Part shown: positions 2,472 through 55,044 of the stretch, piece by piece | Layout: every line of letters begins with the position of its first letter | How positions within the stretch are numbered: the stretch's first letter is position 1 | Assembly: GCA_002772995.1 (NCBI GenBank) | Contig: PFCO01000003.1 | Location: forward strand, 74,253 to 136,756 | Direction of reading: 5' to 3' | Length of the DNA stretch: 62,504 nt | DNA from: Candidatus Niyogibacteria bacterium CG10_big_fil_rev_8_21_14_0_10_46_36 | Lineage (GTDB): Bacteria > Patescibacteriota > Minisyncoccia > 1-14-0-10-42-19 | The notes under the pieces: model-generated | The model's database searches: none | Told to the model about the DNA's origin: nothing | Seen by the model: only the letters and a program-made list of their open reading frames with translations | Program-made: the position numbers and the translations under genes

Positions 2472-3839
2472 TTACATCAATTTTGAGGCAAGCTCTGCAA
2501 GACGCGACCGCTCGCCTTTTTGTAGGGCGACATGGCCAAAAATATCCTGCCCCTGCCATCGTGCAACGGTATACGCAAGGCCGTTTGAAATAGGATCAAG
2601 ATGCGGGTCGTCTATCTGGCTCACATCTCCGGCAAGAACAACTTTTGTGCCCTCTCCCATTCTGGTAATAACCGTTTTTACTTCTTGCGGCGTGAGGTTC
2701 TGCACATCGTCAATAATAACGAATTTACGATTAAAGCTCCGTCCGCGCAAGAATGTGATGGGAGAAATTTCTATCCGCTCGCTTTTCAAAAGCATACTCA
2801 ACCCCGCATTGGAGATGTCCTTGTCCTTGCTTCCGTTTTTCTTGAATACTGCCGACAGCTCTTTATCAGAACGCAATATCAAAGAAAGATTATCAAAGAT
2901 AGGCTGTTTCCATGGTTCAAATTTTTCATCAACTGTCCCCGGTAACGCCCCGAGCGATCTCCCAATTTCAATGTTTGGACGAAAAACCAATATCTGATCG
3001 TACAGGTCTCCTTTTACCTGTATAGCGCCCGCGAGTAAACTGATTAGGGTTTTGCCCGTGCCGGCATCGCCCGCTAATGTCACCAGATGCACTTCCGGCG
3101 CTGTAAGGAGGTGGTAGGCAAAAGCCTGTTCCTCATTGATGGGATGGATTGATGCAAATTCTCTGCGCTTATCTTTCGGAGGAATTTGGGGCTTATCTAC
3201 TCTATGAAACTTGCCATTCAAAAACCGCGCAAGCGCAAACCGCTCCGTATCGCGCAGCATAAAGCGACAGCATTCATTTGGGTAATATTCGCTTCCATAC
3301 AACTCCTTCCATTCGTCAACAACTATATTAAAATCCCTTAATAGCTTATCGAGAAACGCCCCATCTTCTATCTGAACTTCTTTCGGATGCTTATACAGAT
3401 CGGCAATAGAAGAAATAATCTTGTCACTTTTATAGTCTTCGGCGGCAATACCGCATGCCCTTGCCTTAATGCGCAAATTTGTATCTTTGCTCACCAATAT
3501 GACCGTATCGCCGGCATGCTCCTCCTGGACATACTTTGCGCACAAAATAATACGCAAATCATTGTTGCTCTCCATGCTTTTTGCGGCTTCTGCCTCTTTG
3601 GATGTACGGAACTCAATCCGCAATCTCCGGTCATGTTCCATCTTTTCTAGAAGCTTAGACGCTTTTCGCGAGTTAACTCCTCGGTATCCTTGCTCGTGCT
3701 TGAACCGGTCCAATTCGTCAACCACCCATGTAGGAATAACAATATCATGCCCATGCTCACTAAAATGTTCCAAGGCCTTGTGATCGTGAATCAACACGCT
3801 CGTGTCCAGCACAAATCTCTTATTCTGCTTCTGCTCCAC
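2472..3839 (-). CDS. PIN domain + PhoH-family ATPase (PhoH2/YlaK-like)
   Basis: PIN motifs VLDTSVL, NNDLRI, DTNL; Walker A GDAGTGKT; FLRGRSF; AGDVSQID; GTG start with AAGGAGG. Confidence 0.9.
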   Translation of the reverse strand: MEQKQNKRFVLDTSVLIHDHKALEHFSEHGHDIVIPTWVVDELDRFKHEQGYRGVNSRKASKLLEKMEHDRRLRIEFRTSKEAEAAKSMESNNDLRIILCAKYVQEEHAGDTVILVSKDTNLRIKARACGIAAEDYKSDKIISSIADLYKHPKEVQIEDGAFLDKLLRDFNIVVDEWKELYGSEYYPNECCRFMLRDTERFALARFLNGKFHRVDKPQIPPKDKRREFASIHPINEEQAFAYHLLTAPEVHLVTLAGDAGTGKTLISLLAGAIQVKGDLYDQILVFRPNIEIGRSLGALPGTVDEKFEPWKQPIFDNLSLILRSDKELSAVFKKNGSKDKDISNAGLSMLLKSERIEISPITFLRGRSFNRKFVIIDDVQNLTPQEVKTVITRMGEGTKVVLAGDVSQIDDPHLDPISNGLAYTVARWQGQDIFGHVALQKGERSRLAELASKLM

Positions 3840-3951: not shown

Positions 3952-5118
3952 TTATTGGTGTTTCAGTTCTCGTGCAATGACTTTCTTTTGCATTTCCGAA
4001 CTGCCCTCATAAATAGTCGTGCTGAATGTCTCAAATACGCGTAAAAATATCCGTATATCCTTTGTCACCGCCATGCCGCCAAGATATCTGGCTGCACGCG
4101 TCGCAACAGCATACGCAGACTCCGTTGCCTGCAATTTTGCCGCAGATGCGATTGGCGTGATCGCTATATTTCCCTCATCGCGTATTGTAGACGCACTAAG
4201 AACAGTAAACCATGCCGAAAGGAGTGACGCGTGCCATTCAGCAAAATGAAATTGAACGGATTGGTTATCCCATATAGACTTGCCGAACTGACGCCTATCT
4301 TTGGTGTATACGAGCGCTTCATCAAATATTCTTCCCGCAATGCCTAGCGCCTGAGCTCCGATATTTATCCGTCCGCCATCAAGCGTGGCCATTGCTATCT
4401 TAAATCCCTTATTCTCCTCACCCAAAAGAGCGCTTTCGGGCAGAACAACATTATCGCACACTATCTCGCAAAAATCAGAACATGCAAGAATGTGTTTCTC
4501 TATTTTGTTGACCGTAACGCCCACTATATCAGCAAAGCCAGGCGTATGGCTCTCAATAATGAATGCTGAGATATCATGCCTCCCAGAGCCGGTGCGCGCA
4601 AATAAAACACCCACGGAAGCATTGTACGCATTCGTAATGAAAATCTTAGAACCGTTCAGCACCCATCCGCGTTTTTGTTTGGTTGCACGCATCCTGAGCG
4701 ATGCCGCATCCGAGCCTGCCTCAGCTTCCGTCAAACCAAAACATCCGAGCTTTTCTCCGCTTGCAAGAAGAGGCAAAATATTCTTTTTTTGAATCTCATT
4801 CCCCGCATACATAATAGGAAACGCAGCAAGAGAACTGTTTGCGGTCCAGATCAGATGGAGCCCTCCGGATACATAGGCAATCTTGCGCGCGATAAGCGAC
4901 GCTATCTTGCTGTTGAAGCCGCTCCCACCGTATGCTTCAGGTATCGTGACGCCAAAAAGCCCGATCTTCGCCATGATAGATACAAGCGCATGAGGAAACT
5001 CTGCGCGCTCTTCAAAGCCAGCGATAACAGGCATGGCCTCATCCCGTAAAAAAGCATCTACAGTATCAGAAATATTTTTTGCTTCGGAGTCAAACATGAC
5101 GTGGTCATACCATTCCAT
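3952..5118 (-). CDS. Acyl-CoA dehydrogenase (short/branched-chain type)
   Basis: CFGLTEAEAGSDA, LNGSKIFITNA, TLDGGRINIGAQALG, IYEGSSEMQ; start moved to MEWY, which follows GGAGG. Confidence 0.92.
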   Translation of the reverse strand: MEWYDHVMFDSEAKNISDTVDAFLRDEAMPVIAGFEERAEFPHALVSIMAKIGLFGVTIPEAYGGSGFNSKIASLIARKIAYVSGGLHLIWTANSSLAAFPIMYAGNEIQKKNILPLLASGEKLGCFGLTEAEAGSDAASLRMRATKQKRGWVLNGSKIFITNAYNASVGVLFARTGSGRHDISAFIIESHTPGFADIVGVTVNKIEKHILACSDFCEIVCDNVVLPESALLGEENKGFKIAMATLDGGRINIGAQALGIAGRIFDEALVYTKDRRQFGKSIWDNQSVQFHFAEWHASLLSAWFTVLSASTIRDEGNIAITPIASAAKLQATESAYAVATRAARYLGGMAVTKDIRIFLRVFETFSTTIYEGSSEMQKKVIARELKHQ

Positions 5119-6176: not shown

Positions 6177-6897
6177 GATTGCCTGTTATTTCAAAATATT
6201 TTTCTTCTAATGTCTTGCCTCCGTCAAGAAAATCCTCCTTGTCTCCCAGCGCAACCATTTTCCCGCCGTAAATAATGCCTATGCGGCTGCATAGCTTTTC
6301 CACCTCCTCCAGATAATGCGATGTCAGTAAAATAGTTTTTCCGGCCCGATTAAGATCGCGCAGATATCGCCAAATATCGTGCCGCAATTCTACATCCACT
6401 CCTGCGGTGGGCTCATCTAAAATAATCAACTTTGGGTCGTGCACCAGTGCGCGACCCATCATCACTCGGCGCTTCAGCCCCCCTGAAAGCATCCGAAATT
6501 GTTTTTCTGCGTGTTCCTGAAGCTCAAATGTGTGGATGATGTGCGTAACCCGTTTTTTACGCTCATCTCCCCTCATTCCGTAATAGCCCGCCATGTAATC
6601 AAAAACATCTTTTACCTTCATAAAAAGGTCTATGGTAAATTCTTGCGGAGAAAGGCCTATCTGCAAACGCGCATCACGATATTGTTTTTTTACATCAAAT
6701 CCGAATACTGCGATATCGCCCTCAGAAAAATTACTCACCCCGGTAATACACTGGATAGTCGTTGTTTTGCCTGCGCCATTCGGACCTAAAAAACCGAAAA
6801 ACTCGCCTTCTTTTATAGAAAACGAAACGTCGTCCACCGCAAGCGTTTTGCCATACCCCTTGCGTAAATGATTTATAGATAATGCATCTTGTGTCAT
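6166..6897 (-). CDS. ABC transporter ATP-binding protein (YadG-like)
   Basis: GPNGAGKTT, LSGG, ILDEPTAGVD, TSH; start MTQD overlaps the upstream stop (ATGA). Confidence 0.92.
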   Translation of the reverse strand: MTQDALSINHLRKGYGKTLAVDDVSFSIKEGEFFGFLGPNGAGKTTTIQCITGVSNFSEGDIAVFGFDVKKQYRDARLQIGLSPQEFTIDLFMKVKDVFDYMAGYYGMRGDERKKRVTHIIHTFELQEHAEKQFRMLSGGLKRRVMMGRALVHDPKLIILDEPTAGVDVELRHDIWRYLRDLNRAGKTILLTSHYLEEVEKLCSRIGIIYGGKMVALGDKEDFLDGGKTLEEKYFEITGNHAK

Positions 6898-7495: not shown

Positions 7496-7990
7496 TTAAT
7501 TAATGGCGAGCATTTCTACCGTAAAAATAAGCGTGGAGTTAGGCGGTATCGCACCCGGGATGCCCCGCTCGCCGTATGCCAGCTCCGGCGGTATAACAAG
7601 TTTCCGCACCTCACCCACTTTCATACCTTCAACGCCCGCATCCCAGCCGGGGATAACTTCTCTCGCACCTAAAATAAACTTGAACGGCGTCCCTCTGTCT
7701 ACGCTTGAATCAAACTTTGTGTCGTTTTCAAGCCAGCCGGTGTAGTGTACCGTTACCACATCGCCTTTCTCCGCACCAATTCCGGTGCCCTCTTTAATAA
7801 TTGCAAATTGCATAGAAACTTCACGAGCTCCGTCTTCAGCAGATGTGTCGGGAGTCGTTTGTTGATTATTACTGGTATCTGTTACCCCGTTGGACGAATC
7901 GGGATTGTCTGCCTGCTGTGGCCCGCGCAACATGTACCATCCAAATGCAACGACGCACGCCGCAACAAGCACCGCAATAAAAATTTTCAT
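7496..7990 (-). CDS. FKBP-type peptidyl-prolyl isomerase with N-terminal anchor
   Basis: VHYTGWL, FDSSVDRG, VIPGWDAG, PPELAYG, IPPNSTLIF. Confidence 0.95.
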   Translation of the reverse strand: MKIFIAVLVAACVVAFGWYMLRGPQQADNPDSSNGVTDTSNNQQTTPDTSAEDGAREVSMQFAIIKEGTGIGAEKGDVVTVHYTGWLENDTKFDSSVDRGTPFKFILGAREVIPGWDAGVEGMKVGEVRKLVIPPELAYGERGIPGAIPPNSTLIFTVEMLAIN

Positions 7991-43874: not shown

Positions 43875-44624
43875 TTATGCAAGAAGAAGCGACGCTTTGT
43901 AGATATAAAAACGCACTAACCGCGAATCAAGCTCATTCTCTTCGTTGCGCAGTCTTCCTTGCGCATCAATATTTATGTCGGGGAAATCCGTAAGAAGCGG
44001 CTCTAGAAGATCTAATGAATGAGGTCCAAGACCGCCGGCAACGCCAAGACCGATATCGTCCATCTTGTCTCTTATAGCAAGAAGGATGTGCCGGGCGCGC
44101 TCTGCGTCAAACGGCTTGCCGCGGCCTCCGCTCGAATCAAGCAGTATAGCGTCAACCACGCCCCGATACTCAGTAAGGATGCTGGATACCATAAACGGCG
44201 TGCCCGCTGATTCAACAGCGTGCCGTCCAATTTGAAGGACAATGTAGCATTCGCCGGATACTTTTTCTTTGTATGTCCTTAATTGATCGATGCTGGGCCA
44301 TGTCATATTAAGCTGGAATCCGTGAATATGCTCTCCTCCAAGCCTATGAATAGCAAGCATGTCATCTGCTATTGAGTGTTCTTGCCCTTCTTCTGTGCTG
44401 AAGTGAACCAAATTAAGCGCTCGAGCATCGTCTATAAAAATATTTTTGATGTCCTGCGGGTCTGGTGTTTGCTTTGCCCATATCGGCTTCATGGGTATGC
44501 CCCGCAATGATTTCCATGTGGCGAGTACGCCAACCATAAGCTTTCGGTTATTGCCCTTATATGCCTCAAGTGCGGCAGAAACTTCTTCTCGCTTTGAAAA
44601 GCCGGTAACGCCTATGTAACTCAT
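43875..44624 (-). CDS. Hypothetical TIM-barrel protein (TrpF-like fold suspected)
   Basis: LLDSSGGRG, GVAGGLGP, IDAQG; GGGGG before MSYIG. Confidence 0.6.
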   Translation of the reverse strand: MSYIGVTGFSKREEVSAALEAYKGNNRKLMVGVLATWKSLRGIPMKPIWAKQTPDPQDIKNIFIDDARALNLVHFSTEEGQEHSIADDMLAIHRLGGEHIHGFQLNMTWPSIDQLRTYKEKVSGECYIVLQIGRHAVESAGTPFMVSSILTEYRGVVDAILLDSSGGRGKPFDAERARHILLAIRDKMDDIGLGVAGGLGPHSLDLLEPLLTDFPDINIDAQGRLRNEENELDSRLVRFYIYKASLLLA

Positions 44625-44709
44625 TGTGAGTCCCCCATTTTTAAAGGTCTTGAGTGTATTGTATGAAAACAATCTTATCAATGCAGTATAAAAAAGCAAG
44701 CACTTTTTG

Positions 44710-44738
44710 TTGGGATGCCGGGAATCGAACCCGGTCTA
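44710..44738 (-). pseudogene. 3' fragment of a second tRNA-Pro (variable loop, T-arm, 3' acceptor strand)
   Basis: TAGA-CCGGG-TTCGATT-CCCGG-CATCCCA-A; 24/29 identical to the intact gene. Confidence 0.85.
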
Positions 44739-44741
44739 TAT

Positions 44742-44847
44742 CTCTTTGTATTCTTTCGTCGGGCCGCCGAGAATCGAACTCGGTCTACATGCACCCCATG
44801 CATGCGTACTGCCGGTATACTACGGCCCGACGAAAGAATACAAAGAG
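44742..44847. repeat. 18-bp perfect inverted repeat flanking tRNA-Pro (44742-44759 / 44830-44847)
   Basis: CTCTTTGTATTCTTTCGT vs ACGAAAGAATACAAAGAG. Confidence 0.95.
44759..44829 (-). tRNA. tRNA-Pro(GGG), CCA not encoded
   Basis: CGGGCCG/CGGCCCG acceptor, CATGC-ATGGGGT-GCATG anticodon arm, CCGAG-TTCGATT-CTCGG, A73. Confidence 0.95.
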
Positions 44848-44923
44848 CCAGGGATTATTTTTATTTATACCACAACAAGCAAAGGATATAATCCCGTAAA
44901 ATGTAAAAATCTTTACATTTTAC

Positions 44924-44959
44924 CCCCATGCATGCGTACTGCCGGTATACTACATCCCG
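44924..44959 (-). pseudogene. 5' fragment of a second tRNA-Pro (acceptor 5' strand through G37)
   Basis: CGGGATG-TAGTATACCGGCAGTACGCATGCATGGGG; 30 nt identical to the intact gene. Confidence 0.85.
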
Positions 44960-44982
44960 AAGTGTCTCTACTGTAGCATAAT

Positions 44983-45011
44983 AAAAACGGCTCTTCTAGA
45001 AGAGCCGTTTT
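44983..45011. terminator. Terminator at the end of the ALDH gene
   Basis: AAAAACGGCTCTTC-TA-GAAGAGCCGTTTT. Confidence 0.8.
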
Positions 45012-45015
45012 GTTT

Positions 45016-46578
45016 TTATTTTTTCTTTTCCGTAAAACGGATGCCTTGTGCAAGCTCCATAACACCCGAGTAGTTCGTAGCTCCGCCGCTTTCACGCACA
45101 TAATTACGCCACGCATCCCCTCCGGCCTCTCTCCCCCATCCGGTATCATAATTACCGCCAAACGGAGTAGTTGATTCAGCGCCGCTCGTTCCACAATTAA
45201 TGTTTAGTATCCCCGCACGAGAACCTTCCGGTCCCCGGAAATGATACATTGCGCTTATTTTTTCAGTAAAAAGCGCAGCCGCTAACTGTTGCGGCGCTTC
45301 ATTAGCAAGAGATATACCTTCTTCAAGGCTGTCTATCTCTGTTATATACAATATCGGACCGAATGTTTCCTCAAGAGCTATGGGGAGATTTTTTCCTTTT
45401 GGCATGCGCACAACAGTAGGCGCTACAAAACATCCCCGTTCGTGCATACGTTCGCCGCGAATAAGTATTTCTCCTCCCTGCTTTTCTGCGATTGCCGTTG
45501 CCTCCAGGAATTTCTTAACTGCCGATTTGTTTATAAGAGGGCCCGCAAGGGTTTTTTTGTTCAACGGATTTCCAAAATGAGCCCCTCCGCAAAGATCAAG
45601 AAACATGCCTATAAACAAGGAGTATCTGTCTTTGTGGACATAGATACGCCGTGTTGTCGTGCATCGCTGCGCGGTCGTTCCGATAAATCCGAAAAATGCA
45701 GCCTGTGCGGCAAGATCAATATCTGCATCATCAAGAACAATCATGGGATTATTCCCGCCAAGCTCAAGCAACGAACGCCCAAGCCGCGCCCCCACAATCT
45801 CCCCCACTCTCCTACCAACGCGCGTAGAGCCAGTAAAACTTATGAGGTCGATGTTTTTGTCGGCAATCATCCTTTCGCCAATAATAATATTGTCTCCGAT
45901 AACGAGCGCAAGCACACCCTCGTGTCCATATTTTTTAAGAACACGATTGCATATGCGCTGTATTGCTATCGCGCAAAGCGGCGTTTCGAGTGAAGGCTTC
46001 CACACAACAACATTGCCCGTTACGAGCGCTATAAGCGCATTCCACCCCCATACCGCTACCGGAAAATTAAATGCGGTGATGACTCCGATAACGCCGAGGG
46101 GATTATACCACTCTCCAAGCGCATGCCGCGCGCGCTCGCTATAAAATGAATGTCCATTCTTGCCGCGTGAAATACCTGACGCCACCTTTTCAAGATCTAT
46201 GATTTCTTGGACTTCACCCTCGCCTTCGCGCCGTATCTTTCCCATTTCAAGTGCAATAAGACTGCCGAGATCTTTTTTGTGCCGGATAATGCTGCGCACA
46301 ATTTCCCGCACAATAAGCCCGCGCTTTGGCGCAGGCACCATGCGCCATGTGAGAAATGCATCCTTTGCTTTTTCGATGACAGCGTTGTAGTCACTGCTCC
46401 CCGCCATTGTTACCTGCGCAATCATTTCGCCCGTTGAAGGGTTTATGGAATCAAGCAACGCGCCATCTGTGTGCTCCCGCGCGGAGCCCGCCCATGCGCC
46501 GGGATTTATATTCTTAATCCCGAGACGCTCAAGAAATGCATATGTTCCCTTCTGTATGTGTTTTTCTGTCTTGCCCAT
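45016..46578 (-). CDS. Aldehyde dehydrogenase family 7 (aminoadipate-semialdehyde/P6C dehydrogenase-like)
   Basis: ITAFNFPVAV, WKPS, FTGST, LLELGGNN, QRCTT, ETFGPIL, TSGAE, FGG. Confidence 0.9.
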   Translation of the reverse strand: MGKTEKHIQKGTYAFLERLGIKNINPGAWAGSAREHTDGALLDSINPSTGEMIAQVTMAGSSDYNAVIEKAKDAFLTWRMVPAPKRGLIVREIVRSIIRHKKDLGSLIALEMGKIRREGEGEVQEIIDLEKVASGISRGKNGHSFYSERARHALGEWYNPLGVIGVITAFNFPVAVWGWNALIALVTGNVVVWKPSLETPLCAIAIQRICNRVLKKYGHEGVLALVIGDNIIIGERMIADKNIDLISFTGSTRVGRRVGEIVGARLGRSLLELGGNNPMIVLDDADIDLAAQAAFFGFIGTTAQRCTTTRRIYVHKDRYSLFIGMFLDLCGGAHFGNPLNKKTLAGPLINKSAVKKFLEATAIAEKQGGEILIRGERMHERGCFVAPTVVRMPKGKNLPIALEETFGPILYITEIDSLEEGISLANEAPQQLAAALFTEKISAMYHFRGPEGSRAGILNINCGTSGAESTTPFGGNYDTGWGREAGGDAWRNYVRESGGATNYSGVMELAQGIRFTEKKK

Positions 46579-50260: not shown

Positions 50261-50265
50261 TTATG

Positions 50266-50339
50266 TCCGCTCAGTAGGAATCGAACCTACAACCGTCTCC
50301 TTAAGAGGGAGCTGCTCTGCCTGATTGAGCTATGAGCGG
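50266..50339 (-). tRNA. tRNA-Lys(CTT), CCA not encoded
   Basis: CCGCTCA/TGAGCGG acceptor, CTCTTAA loop, GTAGG-TTCGATT-CCTAC. Confidence 0.95.
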
Positions 50340-50344
50340 GAATA

Positions 50345-50830
50345 CTATGTGTGCCGGTCGGCAAGCACGAATGCTCCAAACGAGTATGGTTTCACCGCGG
50401 CCTCAAAGCCGTACCCCTTCACCATTCCGACAACCGTATCTATCAATTCTCGCGTAGGACCATTCTCTCCAACATCAAGATGGACTGTCAATTGATTGTT
50501 CCAAAAAAACTCTTCTCCCAATTTATCCTTTAACGCGCTCCGCAGCTCTTGGGTAAATGCGATAGAACGCATTGTTTCTTTAAATATTCTGTTCTGCAGA
50601 GTGCCGCATTTTTCGGGCAAGGAACGAGACCAGAAATATCGGCCGCCGTTTCCTATCCGCAAAATGCCGACCGCAGTAACAAAACAAACTTCTTTTTCTG
50701 CACGGGAATCACTGCCGACTACGATATGATAATGCGCATCAGGTTTATGGTAAATGTACGCAATCAGTTCATCTACCAACTGCTCAAAGTTGAAGTTGCC
50801 TGCGTGGTTATGGAACTGAAGATTCGTCAT
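50345..50830 (-). CDS. RNase H-like YkuK family protein (DUF458)
   Basis: VGSDS, VHLDVG, VKPYSFGAFVLADRH. Confidence 0.85.
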   Translation of the reverse strand: MTNLQFHNHAGNFNFEQLVDELIAYIYHKPDAHYHIVVGSDSRAEKEVCFVTAVGILRIGNGGRYFWSRSLPEKCGTLQNRIFKETMRSIAFTQELRSALKDKLGEEFFWNNQLTVHLDVGENGPTRELIDTVVGMVKGYGFEAAVKPYSFGAFVLADRHT

Positions 50831-50839
50831 ATACTTCTA

Positions 50840-51652
50840 TTATAAAAGAGTGCTCTGCACATCGGAATGAAGCTGATAATCGTTATTGGTGCGCTTCGCG
50901 CGGAGAATCCTGTCAATCTTAAATACGCGATTTCCTCTGCGGAGATGGCAATATCCCTCAACGGTTGCCGCGTCTAACGCGTAGATATCAACCAGGCGGG
51001 TATTTCGCGAATCGCCTCCATCCTGGGGATTTTTTGTAACATAATCTATCTCGACGCTCTTGCGCGACTCTAACGCGCTCTTCAATACCTGGAACACATC
51101 CCCCTGAAAATCCTCCCCCCATCGGACCGGAATGGATATCTCCCCCATAGCATCCCGCGAGACAAATTTAATATGACCGTGCTCTTTACCGTATTGGTAT
51201 AACTCTTTGGTTACTTTTACGTCTTGGACACAATAATCTTTTACTTCCTGGATGCGCCCCTCCCGGAACCATTGCAGCGCCTGCAATCCGTCGGCGCTCT
51301 TGGAAATATTCAGAGTTGTGCGCGCCAAATTATCAAGCGACACGCGAAAGCCGACCCCCTGTACGACATCATCCATCATATCAAGCATGGGAATCTCCTT
51401 GAGATTTATTGATGTATACGGCTGTAAAACCGGAATATCAAATCCTTTGATGTTAAACCCGACCAAAAGATCCGTGGCTTTTATCATCTCCTCAAATTTC
51501 GGCAACTCATGCTCCTCAAACACATGATACGAGCCGTCATGGGATGTGTATGCAGCAAGAACAGAAATGCCAAGCTTATGAACAAAATCGCGGCCACCCA
51601 CTTCCGCGAATTCCTTTTTTGTTTCTATATCAAAAACAACAGTATTTTCCAT
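50840..51652 (-). CDS. RNase H-like (DEDD/YprB-type) exonuclease domain fused to a C-terminal WYL domain
   Basis: VFDIET, GFNIKGFD, LDMM, YCVQDV; then IDY...R...GYCHLR...RVFKIDRI. Confidence 0.8.
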   Translation of the reverse strand: MENTVVFDIETKKEFAEVGGRDFVHKLGISVLAAYTSHDGSYHVFEEHELPKFEEMIKATDLLVGFNIKGFDIPVLQPYTSINLKEIPMLDMMDDVVQGVGFRVSLDNLARTTLNISKSADGLQALQWFREGRIQEVKDYCVQDVKVTKELYQYGKEHGHIKFVSRDAMGEISIPVRWGEDFQGDVFQVLKSALESRKSVEIDYVTKNPQDGGDSRNTRLVDIYALDAATVEGYCHLRRGNRVFKIDRILRAKRTNNDYQLHSDVQSTLL

Positions 51653-51730
51653 AATATAAAAATGATTATAGCACAAAAATAGAAATAAAAAAGGCCTTGT
51701 GGGCCTTCCTGTACTGCTCCCTCGAGCGGC

Positions 51731-54477: not shown

Positions 54478-55044
54478 CTATTTTTCCTTCAAGAGATACC
54501 GATGGAGTATATTGTATTCTGCTCCACCAAATCCAAGAATAGATTGCATAAGCACCACAGAGGAGAGTGTGCCAAAAAACTTCACACCTTCATCAAGCTG
54601 CTGGATAGGGAACGAGGAGAATTCTTCGGGATGGAAGCGCGCAAGCGTTACATGAAGCCGGAATGGTTCCCGGCTTGGATAGAAATCAACATTCGCATGC
54701 TTTAATATCCGTTCAATCTCTTCTTTTAACTCCTGCATAGCAGGCGGCGTAGGCCCTTCTGCCCAAATAAGCGTTGGCATACGGGTGGTCGGACCAAACC
54801 GTATACGGGTAAGCTCTATCTCAAATGAAATAACATTGCTGATAGTCGGCAAAAGAAGCCCCTTTAAAAAATCTACCTGGCTTTCTTCAATAGACCATGG
54901 CGGCACAAGGGTGACATGAAGATTGCGCGGCTCTATCCAGCGCACGGGGAGATTCACTTTTTTCTGCAAGTCTTTTTCCCACCGGATTATTTTATCTTCC
55001 AAGGCATCATCCAGGGGGAAAGCGAAAAATATTCGTTTACTCAT
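54478..55044 (-). CDS. thpR: RNA 2',3'-cyclic phosphodiesterase (2H phosphoesterase, ThpR/LigT)
   Basis: Two HVTL motifs; RIFFAFP; SILGFGGAEY. Confidence 0.9.
   Translation of the reverse strand: MSKRIFFAFPLDDALEDKIIRWEKDLQKKVNLPVRWIEPRNLHVTLVPPWSIEESQVDFLKGLLLPTISNVISFEIELTRIRFGPTTRMPTLIWAEGPTPPAMQELKEEIERILKHANVDFYPSREPFRLHVTLARFHPEEFSSFPIQQLDEGVKFFGTLSSVVLMQSILGFGGAEYNILHRYLLKEK

Follow-up and report, generated by a model that had tools for sequence, protein, structure and literature searches.

Bacterial tRNA genes have been called "surprisingly uniform" in a 2014 review, in which self-splicing introns of groups I and II were the only known disruption and the only significant structural deviation then recorded for them (PMC4033280). 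In archaea, tRNA genes may carry bulge-helix-bulge (BHB) introns, may be split or tri-split (Nanoarchaeum, Caldivirga) or may be permuted, and archaeal tRNA introns have been proposed to behave as mobile elements (PMC4033280, PMC4390854). The nearest published case to the one reported here is also archaeal: in Caldiarchaeum a 5' tRNA-Thr fragment is followed by a 1.8-kb recombinase element and then by the full gene (PMC3293823). Here we describe a locus in a 62,504-nt stretch of Candidatus Niyogibacteria bacterium CG10_big_fil_rev_8_21_14_0_10_46_36 (contig PFCO01000003.1, positions 74,253 to 136,756; hereafter the window), an ultra-small member of the candidate phyla radiation (CPR, Patescibacteria), in which one tRNA gene lies inside another. 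On the minus strand, from 44959 to 44710, positions 1-37 of an outer tRNA-Pro are followed by two hairpins, by an 18-bp inverted repeat enclosing a complete tRNA-Pro(GGG), and by outer positions 41-73. The inserted cassette is 185 bp in length, contains no open reading frame (ORF) and consists of hairpins with the complete tRNA gene at the tip of the last one. This nested arrangement matches none of the tRNA gene types or mobile elements described so far, and full-text literature searches found no description of nested tRNA genes in bacteria. The parts of the locus are as follows.

44978..44983, minus strand: possible -10 box (TATTAT) for the outer, resident tRNA gene, located 18 nt before outer position 1 and proposed from reading the sequence
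44924..44959, minus strand: outer 5' half, tRNA-Pro positions 1-37 (acceptor CGGGATG, D arm, 5' strand of the anticodon stem and the loop to G37)
44896..44923, minus strand: cassette hairpin 1, GTAAAATGTAAA gatt TTTACATTTTAC (12 bp, 100% complementary), opening at the first base past G37
44851..44895, minus strand: cassette hairpin 2, stem GGGATTAT/ATAATCCC with a 29-nt loop, from the inverted-repeat scan
44864-44872, minus strand: extended -10-like motif TGGTATAAA in the loop of hairpin 2
44848..44850, minus strand: linker TGG, which with the preceding CC forms CCNGG
44830..44847, minus strand: inverted repeat, left arm CTCTTTGTATTCTTTCGT, which pairs with 44742-44759 and stacks on the inner acceptor stem
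44759..44829, minus strand: inner complete tRNA-Pro(GGG) (acceptor CGGGCCG/CGGCCCG, A73, CCA not encoded)
44742..44758, minus strand: inverted repeat, right arm CGAAAGAATACAAAGAG, the exact complement of the left arm; the discriminator A73 (44759) pairs with T 44830
44710..44741, minus strand: outer 3' part ATATAGACCGGGTTCGATTCCCGGCATCCCAA, tRNA-Pro positions 41-73 (ATA, variable loop, T arm CCGGG/CCCGG, acceptor CATCCCA, A73)

Because A73 of the inner gene pairs with the T that precedes inner position 1, the inverted repeat and the inner acceptor stem form a single 25-bp helix (100% paired). The predicted fold of the whole 253-nt unit (z = -8.2) comprises two hairpins, a long helix capped by the inner cloverleaf, and the outer T arm, with the outer acceptor stem closed. 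ARAGORN calls the inner gene as tRNA-Pro(GGG) and Rfam scores it at 51.1 bits with RF00005 (gathering cut-off 29); neither program calls the outer gene. The outer 5' half begins CGGGATG, ends CATGGGG and is identical to the inner gene at 34/36 positions, and the 27-mer GTATACCGGCAGTACGCATGCATGGGG common to both occurs twice in the window (0.00 expected). The outer 3' part, which starts ATA in the window and ATG in relatives (position 41), differs from the native allele by G43A and G72A. The possible outer -10 box lies directly after the terminator hairpin of an aldehyde-dehydrogenase gene (44984-45011), and un-nested relatives have TATGAT/TATAAT-like boxes at a comparable distance from the tRNA. 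The neighbourhood (M50 peptidase, L28, tRNA-Pro(GGG)) adjoins an S12-S7-EF-G operon.

An earlier reading of this sequence, referred to below as the original prediction, had proposed the same five parts; sequence reading and an inverted-repeat scan place each of them where it did. The C1:A72 pair, the complementarity of the outer GGGATG/CATCCC strands and the G:C versus A:T difference in the T-stem were likewise correct. It erred in taking outer positions 38-43 to be missing: the outer 3' part starts at position 41, hence only T38-G39-C40 are absent. Since these three nucleotides are not present in the DNA, its statement that splicing at 37/38 could not restore the outer tRNA holds.

Nesting of this kind is not confined to the window. 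One genome per species was scanned for the tRNA 27-mer, which produced 47 CPR loci (designated by L numbers), and two of these, L034 and L007, break after GGGG in the same manner. The 5' junction GTACRCATGCATGGGGGT, used as a scan pattern, brought in L048 (Yanofskybacteria) and L049 among genomes and L097, L101 and L103/L105 among metagenomes, while a 3'-side pattern (tRNA-Pro end, 12-42 nt, ATRTAGRCC) recovered L108, L114 (Moraniibacteriota), L111 (Uhrbacteria) and L112, as well as the partial forms L043 and L109. With the window included, a nested tRNA-Pro(GGG) is therefore found in at least 12 CPR genomes or contigs. In every nest the innermost gene is the only one seen by ARAGORN and Rfam, and Rfam at gathering score returned tRNAs only across the 12 nested loci. 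The insertion site is always the anticodon loop of tRNA-Pro(GGG), and the fold always makes the cassette ends abut. A more specific pattern taken from the cassette itself (GGGATTAY..RTAATCCCYGGCT) was discarded, as it gave almost exclusively chance matches in coding DNA of unrelated phyla, L034 and L049 being the only real ones.

Three types of cassette were distinguished. In types A and B (ten nests) the resident gene is cut after G37 and the insert starts with GT, the opening of hairpin 1, which closes with AC. Hairpin 2 (GGG...CCC) follows directly, then NGG, and finally hairpin 3, which ends just before ATGTAG (position 41 onward). Most of these nests have the CCNGG motif after hairpin 2 (CCCTGG, CCCCGG, CCCAGG, TCCAGG, TCCCGG). 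The inserted tRNA occupies the apical loop of hairpin 3 in the window, L034, L049, L007, L101 and L114, that of hairpin 2 in L048, L103 and L108, and that of hairpin 1 in L097. Type C, represented by L111, L112 and the partial L043, has as its insert a single long hairpin around the tRNA, with junctions ...GCAC|[T/G]TGCCC and GGGTGAAG|GTGCATGTAG and with positions 33-36 replaced. The promoter that the original prediction placed in hairpin 2 fared less well than its anatomy: a -10-like box (TATAAA, TATTAT or TATAAT) is present in the window, L034, L049 and L043 and absent from the other cassettes. A conserved internal promoter was rejected, as the TATAAA of hairpin 2 is kept only in the closest cassettes.

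Several loci are nested more than once. Three levels are cleanly stacked in L112, each with its own allele and a matched acceptor pair, and the outermost shell of this triple nest has the odd D-loop and T-loop of an un-nested gene, L110, from the same study. L111, L049 and L108 carry extra outer 3' relic layers, each preceded by the same cassette-end motif. Two side observations concern these loci. The L110 gene (reverse strand, ~3140-3215) is a tRNA-Pro(GGG)-like gene that follows tRNA-Pro(CGG) and tRNA-Pro(TGG), has the T-loop AGCATTA instead of TTCRATT and is not called by ARAGORN; the GGG isoacceptor may be dispensable or degenerate in this lineage. At L111 (reverse strand, ~2605-2730) only 8-9 nt of the outermost 5' acceptor strand, GGGGTGTA, are visible, and next to them a 13-bp inverted repeat (CCCCGTTAGAGAT / ATCTCTAACGGGG) surrounds ~80 nt and overlaps the 5' end of the following tRNA. 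From its sequence this outermost break appears to be a different kind of interruption, near position 9/10.

The outer halves have lost what a tRNA needs. T38-G39-C40 are absent in all ten type A/B nests and positions 33-36 in type C, and in no nest are the nucleotides required to rebuild the anticodon arm from the outer halves encoded. All 57 complete CPR tRNA-Pro(GGG) genes collected end in C1:G72 / A73, whereas the outer gene of the window has C1:A72. Lesions of kinds never shown by the functional tRNAs of the set affect the outer gene in at least 8 of the 12 nests: G72A and G43A in the window; G2A and a broken T-stem in L097; an acceptor mismatch in L111; hairpins of 20 to ~130 nt within the T-loop in L048, L103 and L114; and chimeric T-stems in L007 and L101, in which one strand is inner-like and the other host-type, with A:C and C:C mismatches. 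We read these last two as marks of patchy gene conversion and not of selection for pairing. No tRNA can be made from the outer halves, given the loss of positions 38-40 and, in the window, the mutation of G72 and G43 as well; on this evidence we regard the outer gene as a dead shell and the inner gene as the presumed working copy. The outer acceptor strands are complementary to each other (GGGATG/CATCCC in the window, GGGGTG/CACCCC in L049 and the three matched pairs of L112). Such complementarity is expected from the splitting of an intact gene and so is not independent evidence of function.

The cassettes keep their fold where they have not kept their sequence. Between subtypes the sequences differ almost wholly, but the plan of hairpins and the junctions are retained, and at ten loci the cassette (with its tRNA replaced by a tetraloop) folds at z = -5.8 to -10.6. 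Covariation, which the original prediction had suggested as a check, was assessed on the three alignable cassettes (window, L034 and L049). In these, 99.1% of cells are paired, 18 of 75 pairs show compensatory changes on both sides and one shows a single-sided change, a level reached by 0/500 shuffles. Both-side changes affect 5 of 12 pairs in hairpin 1, 9 of 25 in the helix formed by the repeat and the acceptor stem, and one in the stem of hairpin 2. The whole window unit folds about equally on both strands (z = -8.2 sense, -9.0 antisense); the sense strand folds better in 6 of 8 cassettes. The helices are nearly pure Watson-Crick, with rare G:U pairs. Given these two properties, constraint at the RNA level cannot be separated from constraint at the DNA level, and DNA-level correction of one arm by the other could yield "covariation" without selection on RNA. 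An RNA-specific signature was accordingly not supported.

The inverted repeat that extends the acceptor stem marks the cassette-borne genes. An extension of at least 14 bp is present in 8 of 12 nested inner genes as against 1 of 45 un-nested tRNA-Pro(GGG) genes. That one gene, L031 (reverse strand, ~6480-6620), is an un-nested CGGGATG-allele tRNA-Pro(GGG) with a 14-bp inverted repeat, TGTATAAT upstream, a TATAAT box and no outer halves; its neighbours encode ParB and BacA. This gene may represent the cassette in a "free" state, without a shell.

The order M50-L28-tRNA-Pro(GGG) is found in many CPR loci, nested (including the window, L034, L048 and L101) or un-nested. We used this synteny for comparison because relatives of the window's flanking genes gave no empty site: no relative of the 249-aa protein encoded beside the nest exceeded 63% identity, those found were not syntenic and no close uninterrupted allele was obtained. 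Relatives of L049 retrieved via its downstream gene were also not syntenic. In an M50 tree, which is based on one short protein and is indicative only, the window groups with the un-nested L004, L020 and L047, L034 pairs with L101 as its sister, and L048 stands apart. An uninterrupted tRNA right after L28 is present in all four of the closest L034 relatives retrieved from metagenomes (M50 74-77% identical). The search in relatives that the original prediction called for thus returned both conserved nesting (11 loci) and uninterrupted alleles. L047 is the most informative of the latter: it is identical to the outer allele of the window at 36/36 positions of the 5' half, with three differences in the 3' part, and the inner allele of the window (CGGGCCG, T-stem CCGAG/CTCGG) differs from it. 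This agrees with the proposal that the outer halves belonged to a single resident tRNA-Pro allele and were parted by insertion of a ~185-nt cassette that brought a replacement tRNA. Judged from these sequences, the nests are derived and sporadic among relatives that carry an intact gene at the same position.

Alleles at this position also appear to turn over. L119 and L120 have M50 proteins that are 86% identical, but their tRNA-Pro(GGG) genes after L28 match at only 58/71 positions and differ in the anticodon stem (CAAGG/TCTTG versus CATGC/GCATG); the L120 gene is identical to the inner gene of L034 at 68/71. Together with L117 and L118, this pair suggests frequent horizontal allele replacement at the L28-tRNA-Pro locus. 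The cassettes of the window, L034 and L049 are 59-82% identical in their non-tRNA parts, although the M50 proteins of their hosts are 57-59% identical and their flanks cannot be aligned. Taken together, the un-nested relatives, the allele mismatches, the triple nest and the allele turnover indicate that insertion has been repeated and that tRNA-Pro(GGG) sequences move between lineages.

When set beside the known systems, the cassette shares single traits with each. Like the tRNA-targeting integrative elements (tyrosine-integrase phages, integrative and conjugative elements, islands and the archaeal pNOB8/SSV-type elements), it has an anticodon-loop target, brings tRNA sequence along, leaves fragments and accretes serially. 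Unlike them, it has no recombinase and no repeated att core, carries a whole tRNA gene rather than a 3' segment, consists of 100-190 bp of hairpins, leaves both resident halves as flanks, and is repeated by nesting rather than in tandem. No recombinase, transposase or homing nuclease gene was found by Pfam analysis of 20 window ORFs (37.7-59.2 kb) and 10 ORFs beside L031, L043 and L049. The window junctions, GGGG|GTAAAA and AAAGAG|ATATAG, have no common core; three nucleotides were lost and the complete gene is central. The inner acceptor strands moreover match each other, which bears out the view that a single att crossover does not explain the layout. Group I introns (in tRNA-Leu(UAA), tRNA-fMet, tRNA-Ile and tRNA-Arg) resemble the cassette in being inserted by the anticodon (37/38), structured and folded such that their ends are brought together, and both hold a passenger in a peripheral hairpin: a homing-endonuclease ORF in the introns, a tRNA in the cassette. 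The exons of the cassette, however, are incomplete and could not be restored to a tRNA by splicing, and function would come from a second, complete gene inside. Rfam matched no intron family, whether in 44300-45400 with E-values of up to 10 or in the 12 nested loci at gathering score.

The archaeal disrupted tRNAs share with the nest a break at 37/38 and complementary sequences beside the halves, by which these could be kept in contact (PMC4033280, PMC4390854). They differ in that the host here is bacterial, positions 38-40 (types A and B) or 33-36 (type C) are missing, and the halves look as if they were decaying and not assembled. Inspection of the predicted folds, with no dedicated BHB search, revealed no paired 3-nt bulges 4 bp apart; hairpin 1 starts and hairpin 3 ends at the junction. 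Short, protein-less, hairpin-rich elements that are found within genes and can nest are a further parallel, and include miniature inverted-repeat transposable elements (MITEs), repetitive extragenic palindromic sequences and bacterial interspersed mosaic elements (REP/BIME), palindrome-associated transposable elements (PATEs) derived from insertion sequences IS200/IS605, and the Rickettsia palindromic elements. In contrast to the MITE/PATE type, the cassette has one specific target, supplies a functional gene for the one destroyed and is single in the window; its ends are not inverted repeats of each other, and neither a target-site duplication nor a second copy was detected within the 62 kb. 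Free-standing cassettes can also spread by intron-less homing, as does phage T4 SegB in a tRNA gene cluster. There, as is proposed here, a DNA segment in a tRNA gene region is preferentially inherited via recombination in flanking homology. The cassette differs in having no associated endonuclease gene and in regenerating its target instead of destroying it, a property that predicts the serial nesting observed.

We propose, with a probability of roughly 0.6, that the nests are produced by a self-complementing tRNA cassette which lacks any protein gene and inserts recurrently into the resident tRNA-Pro(GGG). As far as can be read from the sequences, the cassette destroys the resident gene and supplies a replacement tRNA. 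The replacement brings a fresh, intact tRNA-Pro anticodon loop, so that the same insertion can recur inside it, and double and triple nests (L112, L111, L049, L108) would follow. The minimal self-complementing insertion element that was one of the two options of the original prediction is thus favoured by the comparative data (the family, the serial nesting and the sporadic, derived distribution). A further step, which we offer tentatively and at somewhat less than even odds, is that the cassettes constitute an unrecognised class of protein-less selfish elements that home into tRNA-Pro(GGG) anticodon loops across CPR, use tRNA halves as homology arms, and kill and replace the resident; in a variant of this proposal the nested transcript would also yield a functional two-piece tRNA-like RNA.

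Spread would be by recombination or gene conversion, with the tRNA halves of ~36 and 32 nt, near-identical across CPR, as homology arms; DNA uptake or a break in anticodon-loop DNA may be the trigger. The self-folded insert would hold the arms adjacent, such that the donor strand could pair with the resident gene as one block of ~70 nt with a bulged hairpin. This would account for the ends being kept together in every subtype and for a junction that is identical by descent. A nuclease or recombinase may act in trans, and CATGCATGGGGTGCATG is a conceivable recognition DNA for a nuclease. Transcription would start from the resident promoter (TATTAT, 18 nt upstream) and, in the subtype of the window, perhaps also from TGGTATAAA in hairpin 2. 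The 25-bp helix would first be opened, perhaps by RNase III or another double-strand RNase, and RNase P, 3' trimming and CCA addition would then release the inner tRNA.

Some of the data pull the other way. No movement enzyme, target-site duplication or within-species empty/occupied polymorphism was found, and mobility is something that we infer; the homology arms are short (~36 and 32 nt), and the cassette is single in the 62-kb window. The census patterns were drawn from the window locus, are hence biased, and cover tRNA-Pro(GGG) only. The outer halves of the window, L034 and L049 are 88-97% identical, compared with 87-90% for the inner genes. Recent insertion, homogenising of the outer halves by the inner copy or joint transfer of both arms may account for this, and selection on the shell may also contribute. 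All type A/B nests have the same junctions (GGGG|GT ... |ATGTAG), a uniformity that a single ancient event and subsequent vertical descent would also produce. Lineage-specific variants (C9 and T at D-loop position 15) are common to the two copies, outer and inner, in L048 and L049; they may be due to gene conversion after insertion and may also point to a local origin of the inner copy.

The last two observations also speak for a static history, in which one or a few ancient insertions or duplications were inherited vertically, with gene conversion between copies, repeated loss by direct-repeat recombination and no mobility. The conserved M50-L28-tRNA-Pro synteny of the window, L034, L048 and L101 fits such a history, and the chimeric T-stems of L007 and L101 are evidence of gene conversion at work. 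We nevertheless consider it unlikely: nested loci are scattered among un-nested relatives; where outer and inner alleles are unlike, two recombinations would be needed to regain a matched acceptor, yet L047 has a clean outer allele; the three alleles at the three levels of L112 call for at least two events there; and the cassettes resemble each other despite diverged hosts and flanks. Tandem triplication plus deletion and template switching were set aside, as neither gives matched outer acceptors together with flanking inverted repeats. Improbable, in our judgement, is that the nest is a functional composite RNA in which the outer halves form a tRNA-like shell, perhaps in two pieces after cleavage by RNases P and Z, that serves as scaffold, decoy or mimic resembling tmRNA or Y RNA. 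In the minimum-free-energy fold the cassette is indeed enclosed by a closed outer acceptor stem and the outer T arm, the outer acceptor is paired at 7/7 positions in six of nine parsed type A/B nests (L034, L049, L007, L048, L114, L108) and at 6/7 in the window, L101 and L097, with three complementary allele types, the outer halves are as similar between genomes as given above, and the insertion ends are juxtaposed in all cassette types. The lesions, however, strike defining tRNA-like features (in the window, L007, L101 and L097, and as T-loop insertions in L048, L103 and L114), complementary acceptors would be expected in any case, and the equal folding of both strands and the near-pure Watson-Crick helices give no sign of RNA-specific selection. 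The tmRNA-like domain that the original prediction connected with this shell was not borne out: the Rfam tmRNA match is confined to the T arm (14 bits versus 47), permuted tmRNA scores 13.7 versus 47, and ARAGORN finds no tmRNA.

The anticodon loop and T-loop are reportedly (in work attributed to Williams, 2002) the classical sublocations targeted by integrases in tRNA genes, and the nest could conceivably be a scar of integrase-mediated integration or excision of a phage, plasmid or island at these two loops, with the body of the element deleted. In L043, L109 and L033 a complete tRNA is indeed followed by 3' fragments. At the Caldiarchaeum locus a recombinase-bearing element separates a complete tRNA-Thr from a 5' tRNA fragment upstream of it (PMC3293823). 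We think this very improbable for the loci described here, as nucleotides were lost at the junctions and no att core was duplicated, the acceptor strands of the complete gene match each other and are not chimeric, and the few dozen flanking bases form exact inverted repeats, which random deletion would not be expected to leave. No integrase gene lies near the window nest, L049 or L043, the three nests whose neighbours were scanned. As regards a phage or plasmid source, a scan of viral contigs for the tRNA-Pro 3' segment found nothing, and the single viral match to the 5' junction was a chance match in coding DNA. Conservative site-specific recombination and insertion of the IS200/IS605 type were rejected for junctions that have no shared core or target motif and have lost bases. 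Finally, a collapsed or chimeric assembly of two tRNA-Pro strain alleles was considered, as the locus contains a 30-nt exact repeat and a Logan contig (k=31) ends inside it, as would be expected. This is barely credible: the identical 440-bp intergenic region (aldehyde-dehydrogenase gene to 249-aa gene) is present in two other stored assemblies, ENA ERZ27293414 and JGI 3300025850, which may not be independent of the window's source; the same architecture, with different sequences, recurs in 11 further genomes or contigs that stem from unrelated studies and assemblers; and the cassette helices carry compensatory changes. Mis-assembly, which the original prediction had asked to be checked, is excluded as far as sequence data allow.

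Other observations were made at and around these loci. In several unrelated CPR genomes the outer 3' relics of tRNA-Pro have, inserted in their T-loop, a nearly invariant 20-bp perfect palindrome, CCTGCCTGCC|GGCAGGCAGG, which shows minor variation (L048, plus strand, 4561-4580; L043, 4385-4404; L109, 2417-2436; L111, ~4046). It also occurs at L010 (393), L016 (4367 and 5660) and L019 (1472), in one case ~50 nt downstream of an intact tRNA-Pro. From its sequence it looks like a second widespread palindromic mini-element or a protein-binding site. At L103 the hairpin element GCACATAATTTTYTGGTGAAAATTTGYGC is present twice within 400 bp (3730-3790 and 4105-4145), with one copy in the outer T-loop of the nest, and two copies of a T-stem/acceptor 3' end, CCCGGCGGCCCGA, lie further downstream; these repeats suggest serial insertions at the T-loop too. 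At L045 (reverse strand, ~7500-7730) the ~200 nt that follow a complete tRNA-Val(CAC) contain pieces of the same gene in scrambled order (one from the 5' acceptor, one resembling the T arm, and a 3' end in duplicate), and a stem CCTTGCG/CGCAAGG around TATAAACAAAAAAAT resembles hairpin 2 of the window. Related debris may therefore exist at other CPR tRNA genes. In the window, the gene directly downstream of the nest (43875-44624, minus strand) encodes the 249-aa protein, which has no Pfam match and more than 200 CPR homologues. A few of these are labelled phosphoribosylanthranilate isomerase by their sources, and the protein belongs to a conserved CPR family without an assigned function. A protein of the LigT-like 2H phosphoesterase / 2'-5' RNA ligase family is encoded ~10 kb from the nest (54478-55044, minus strand); it is the only RNA-end-processing enzyme seen in the 62-kb window, and a homologue is found near the 249-aa gene in L056. 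An RNaseH-like (PF04308) protein beside a 3'-5' exonuclease with a C-terminal WYL domain (50345-51676, minus strand) is encoded immediately upstream of tRNA-Lys(CTT) (50265-50339).

Nesting of one tRNA gene in another's anticodon loop, to a depth of up to three, would amount to a new gene architecture. Cassettes of this kind, if mobile, would represent a new mode of selfish DNA that has no enzyme of its own and takes both its targeting and its homology from the most conserved genes of the cell; a mobile cassette would also be addictive, because it replaces what it breaks. In practical terms, tRNA finders report only the innermost gene of a nest, and short-k-mer assemblers break at nests. The tRNA-Pro alleles appear to be exchanged horizontally among CPR lineages. 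The nests would show, in present-day bacteria, a route by which tRNA genes can become split or intron-like and tRNA halves scattered, and thus bear on the long debate over the origin of tRNA introns at position 37/38.

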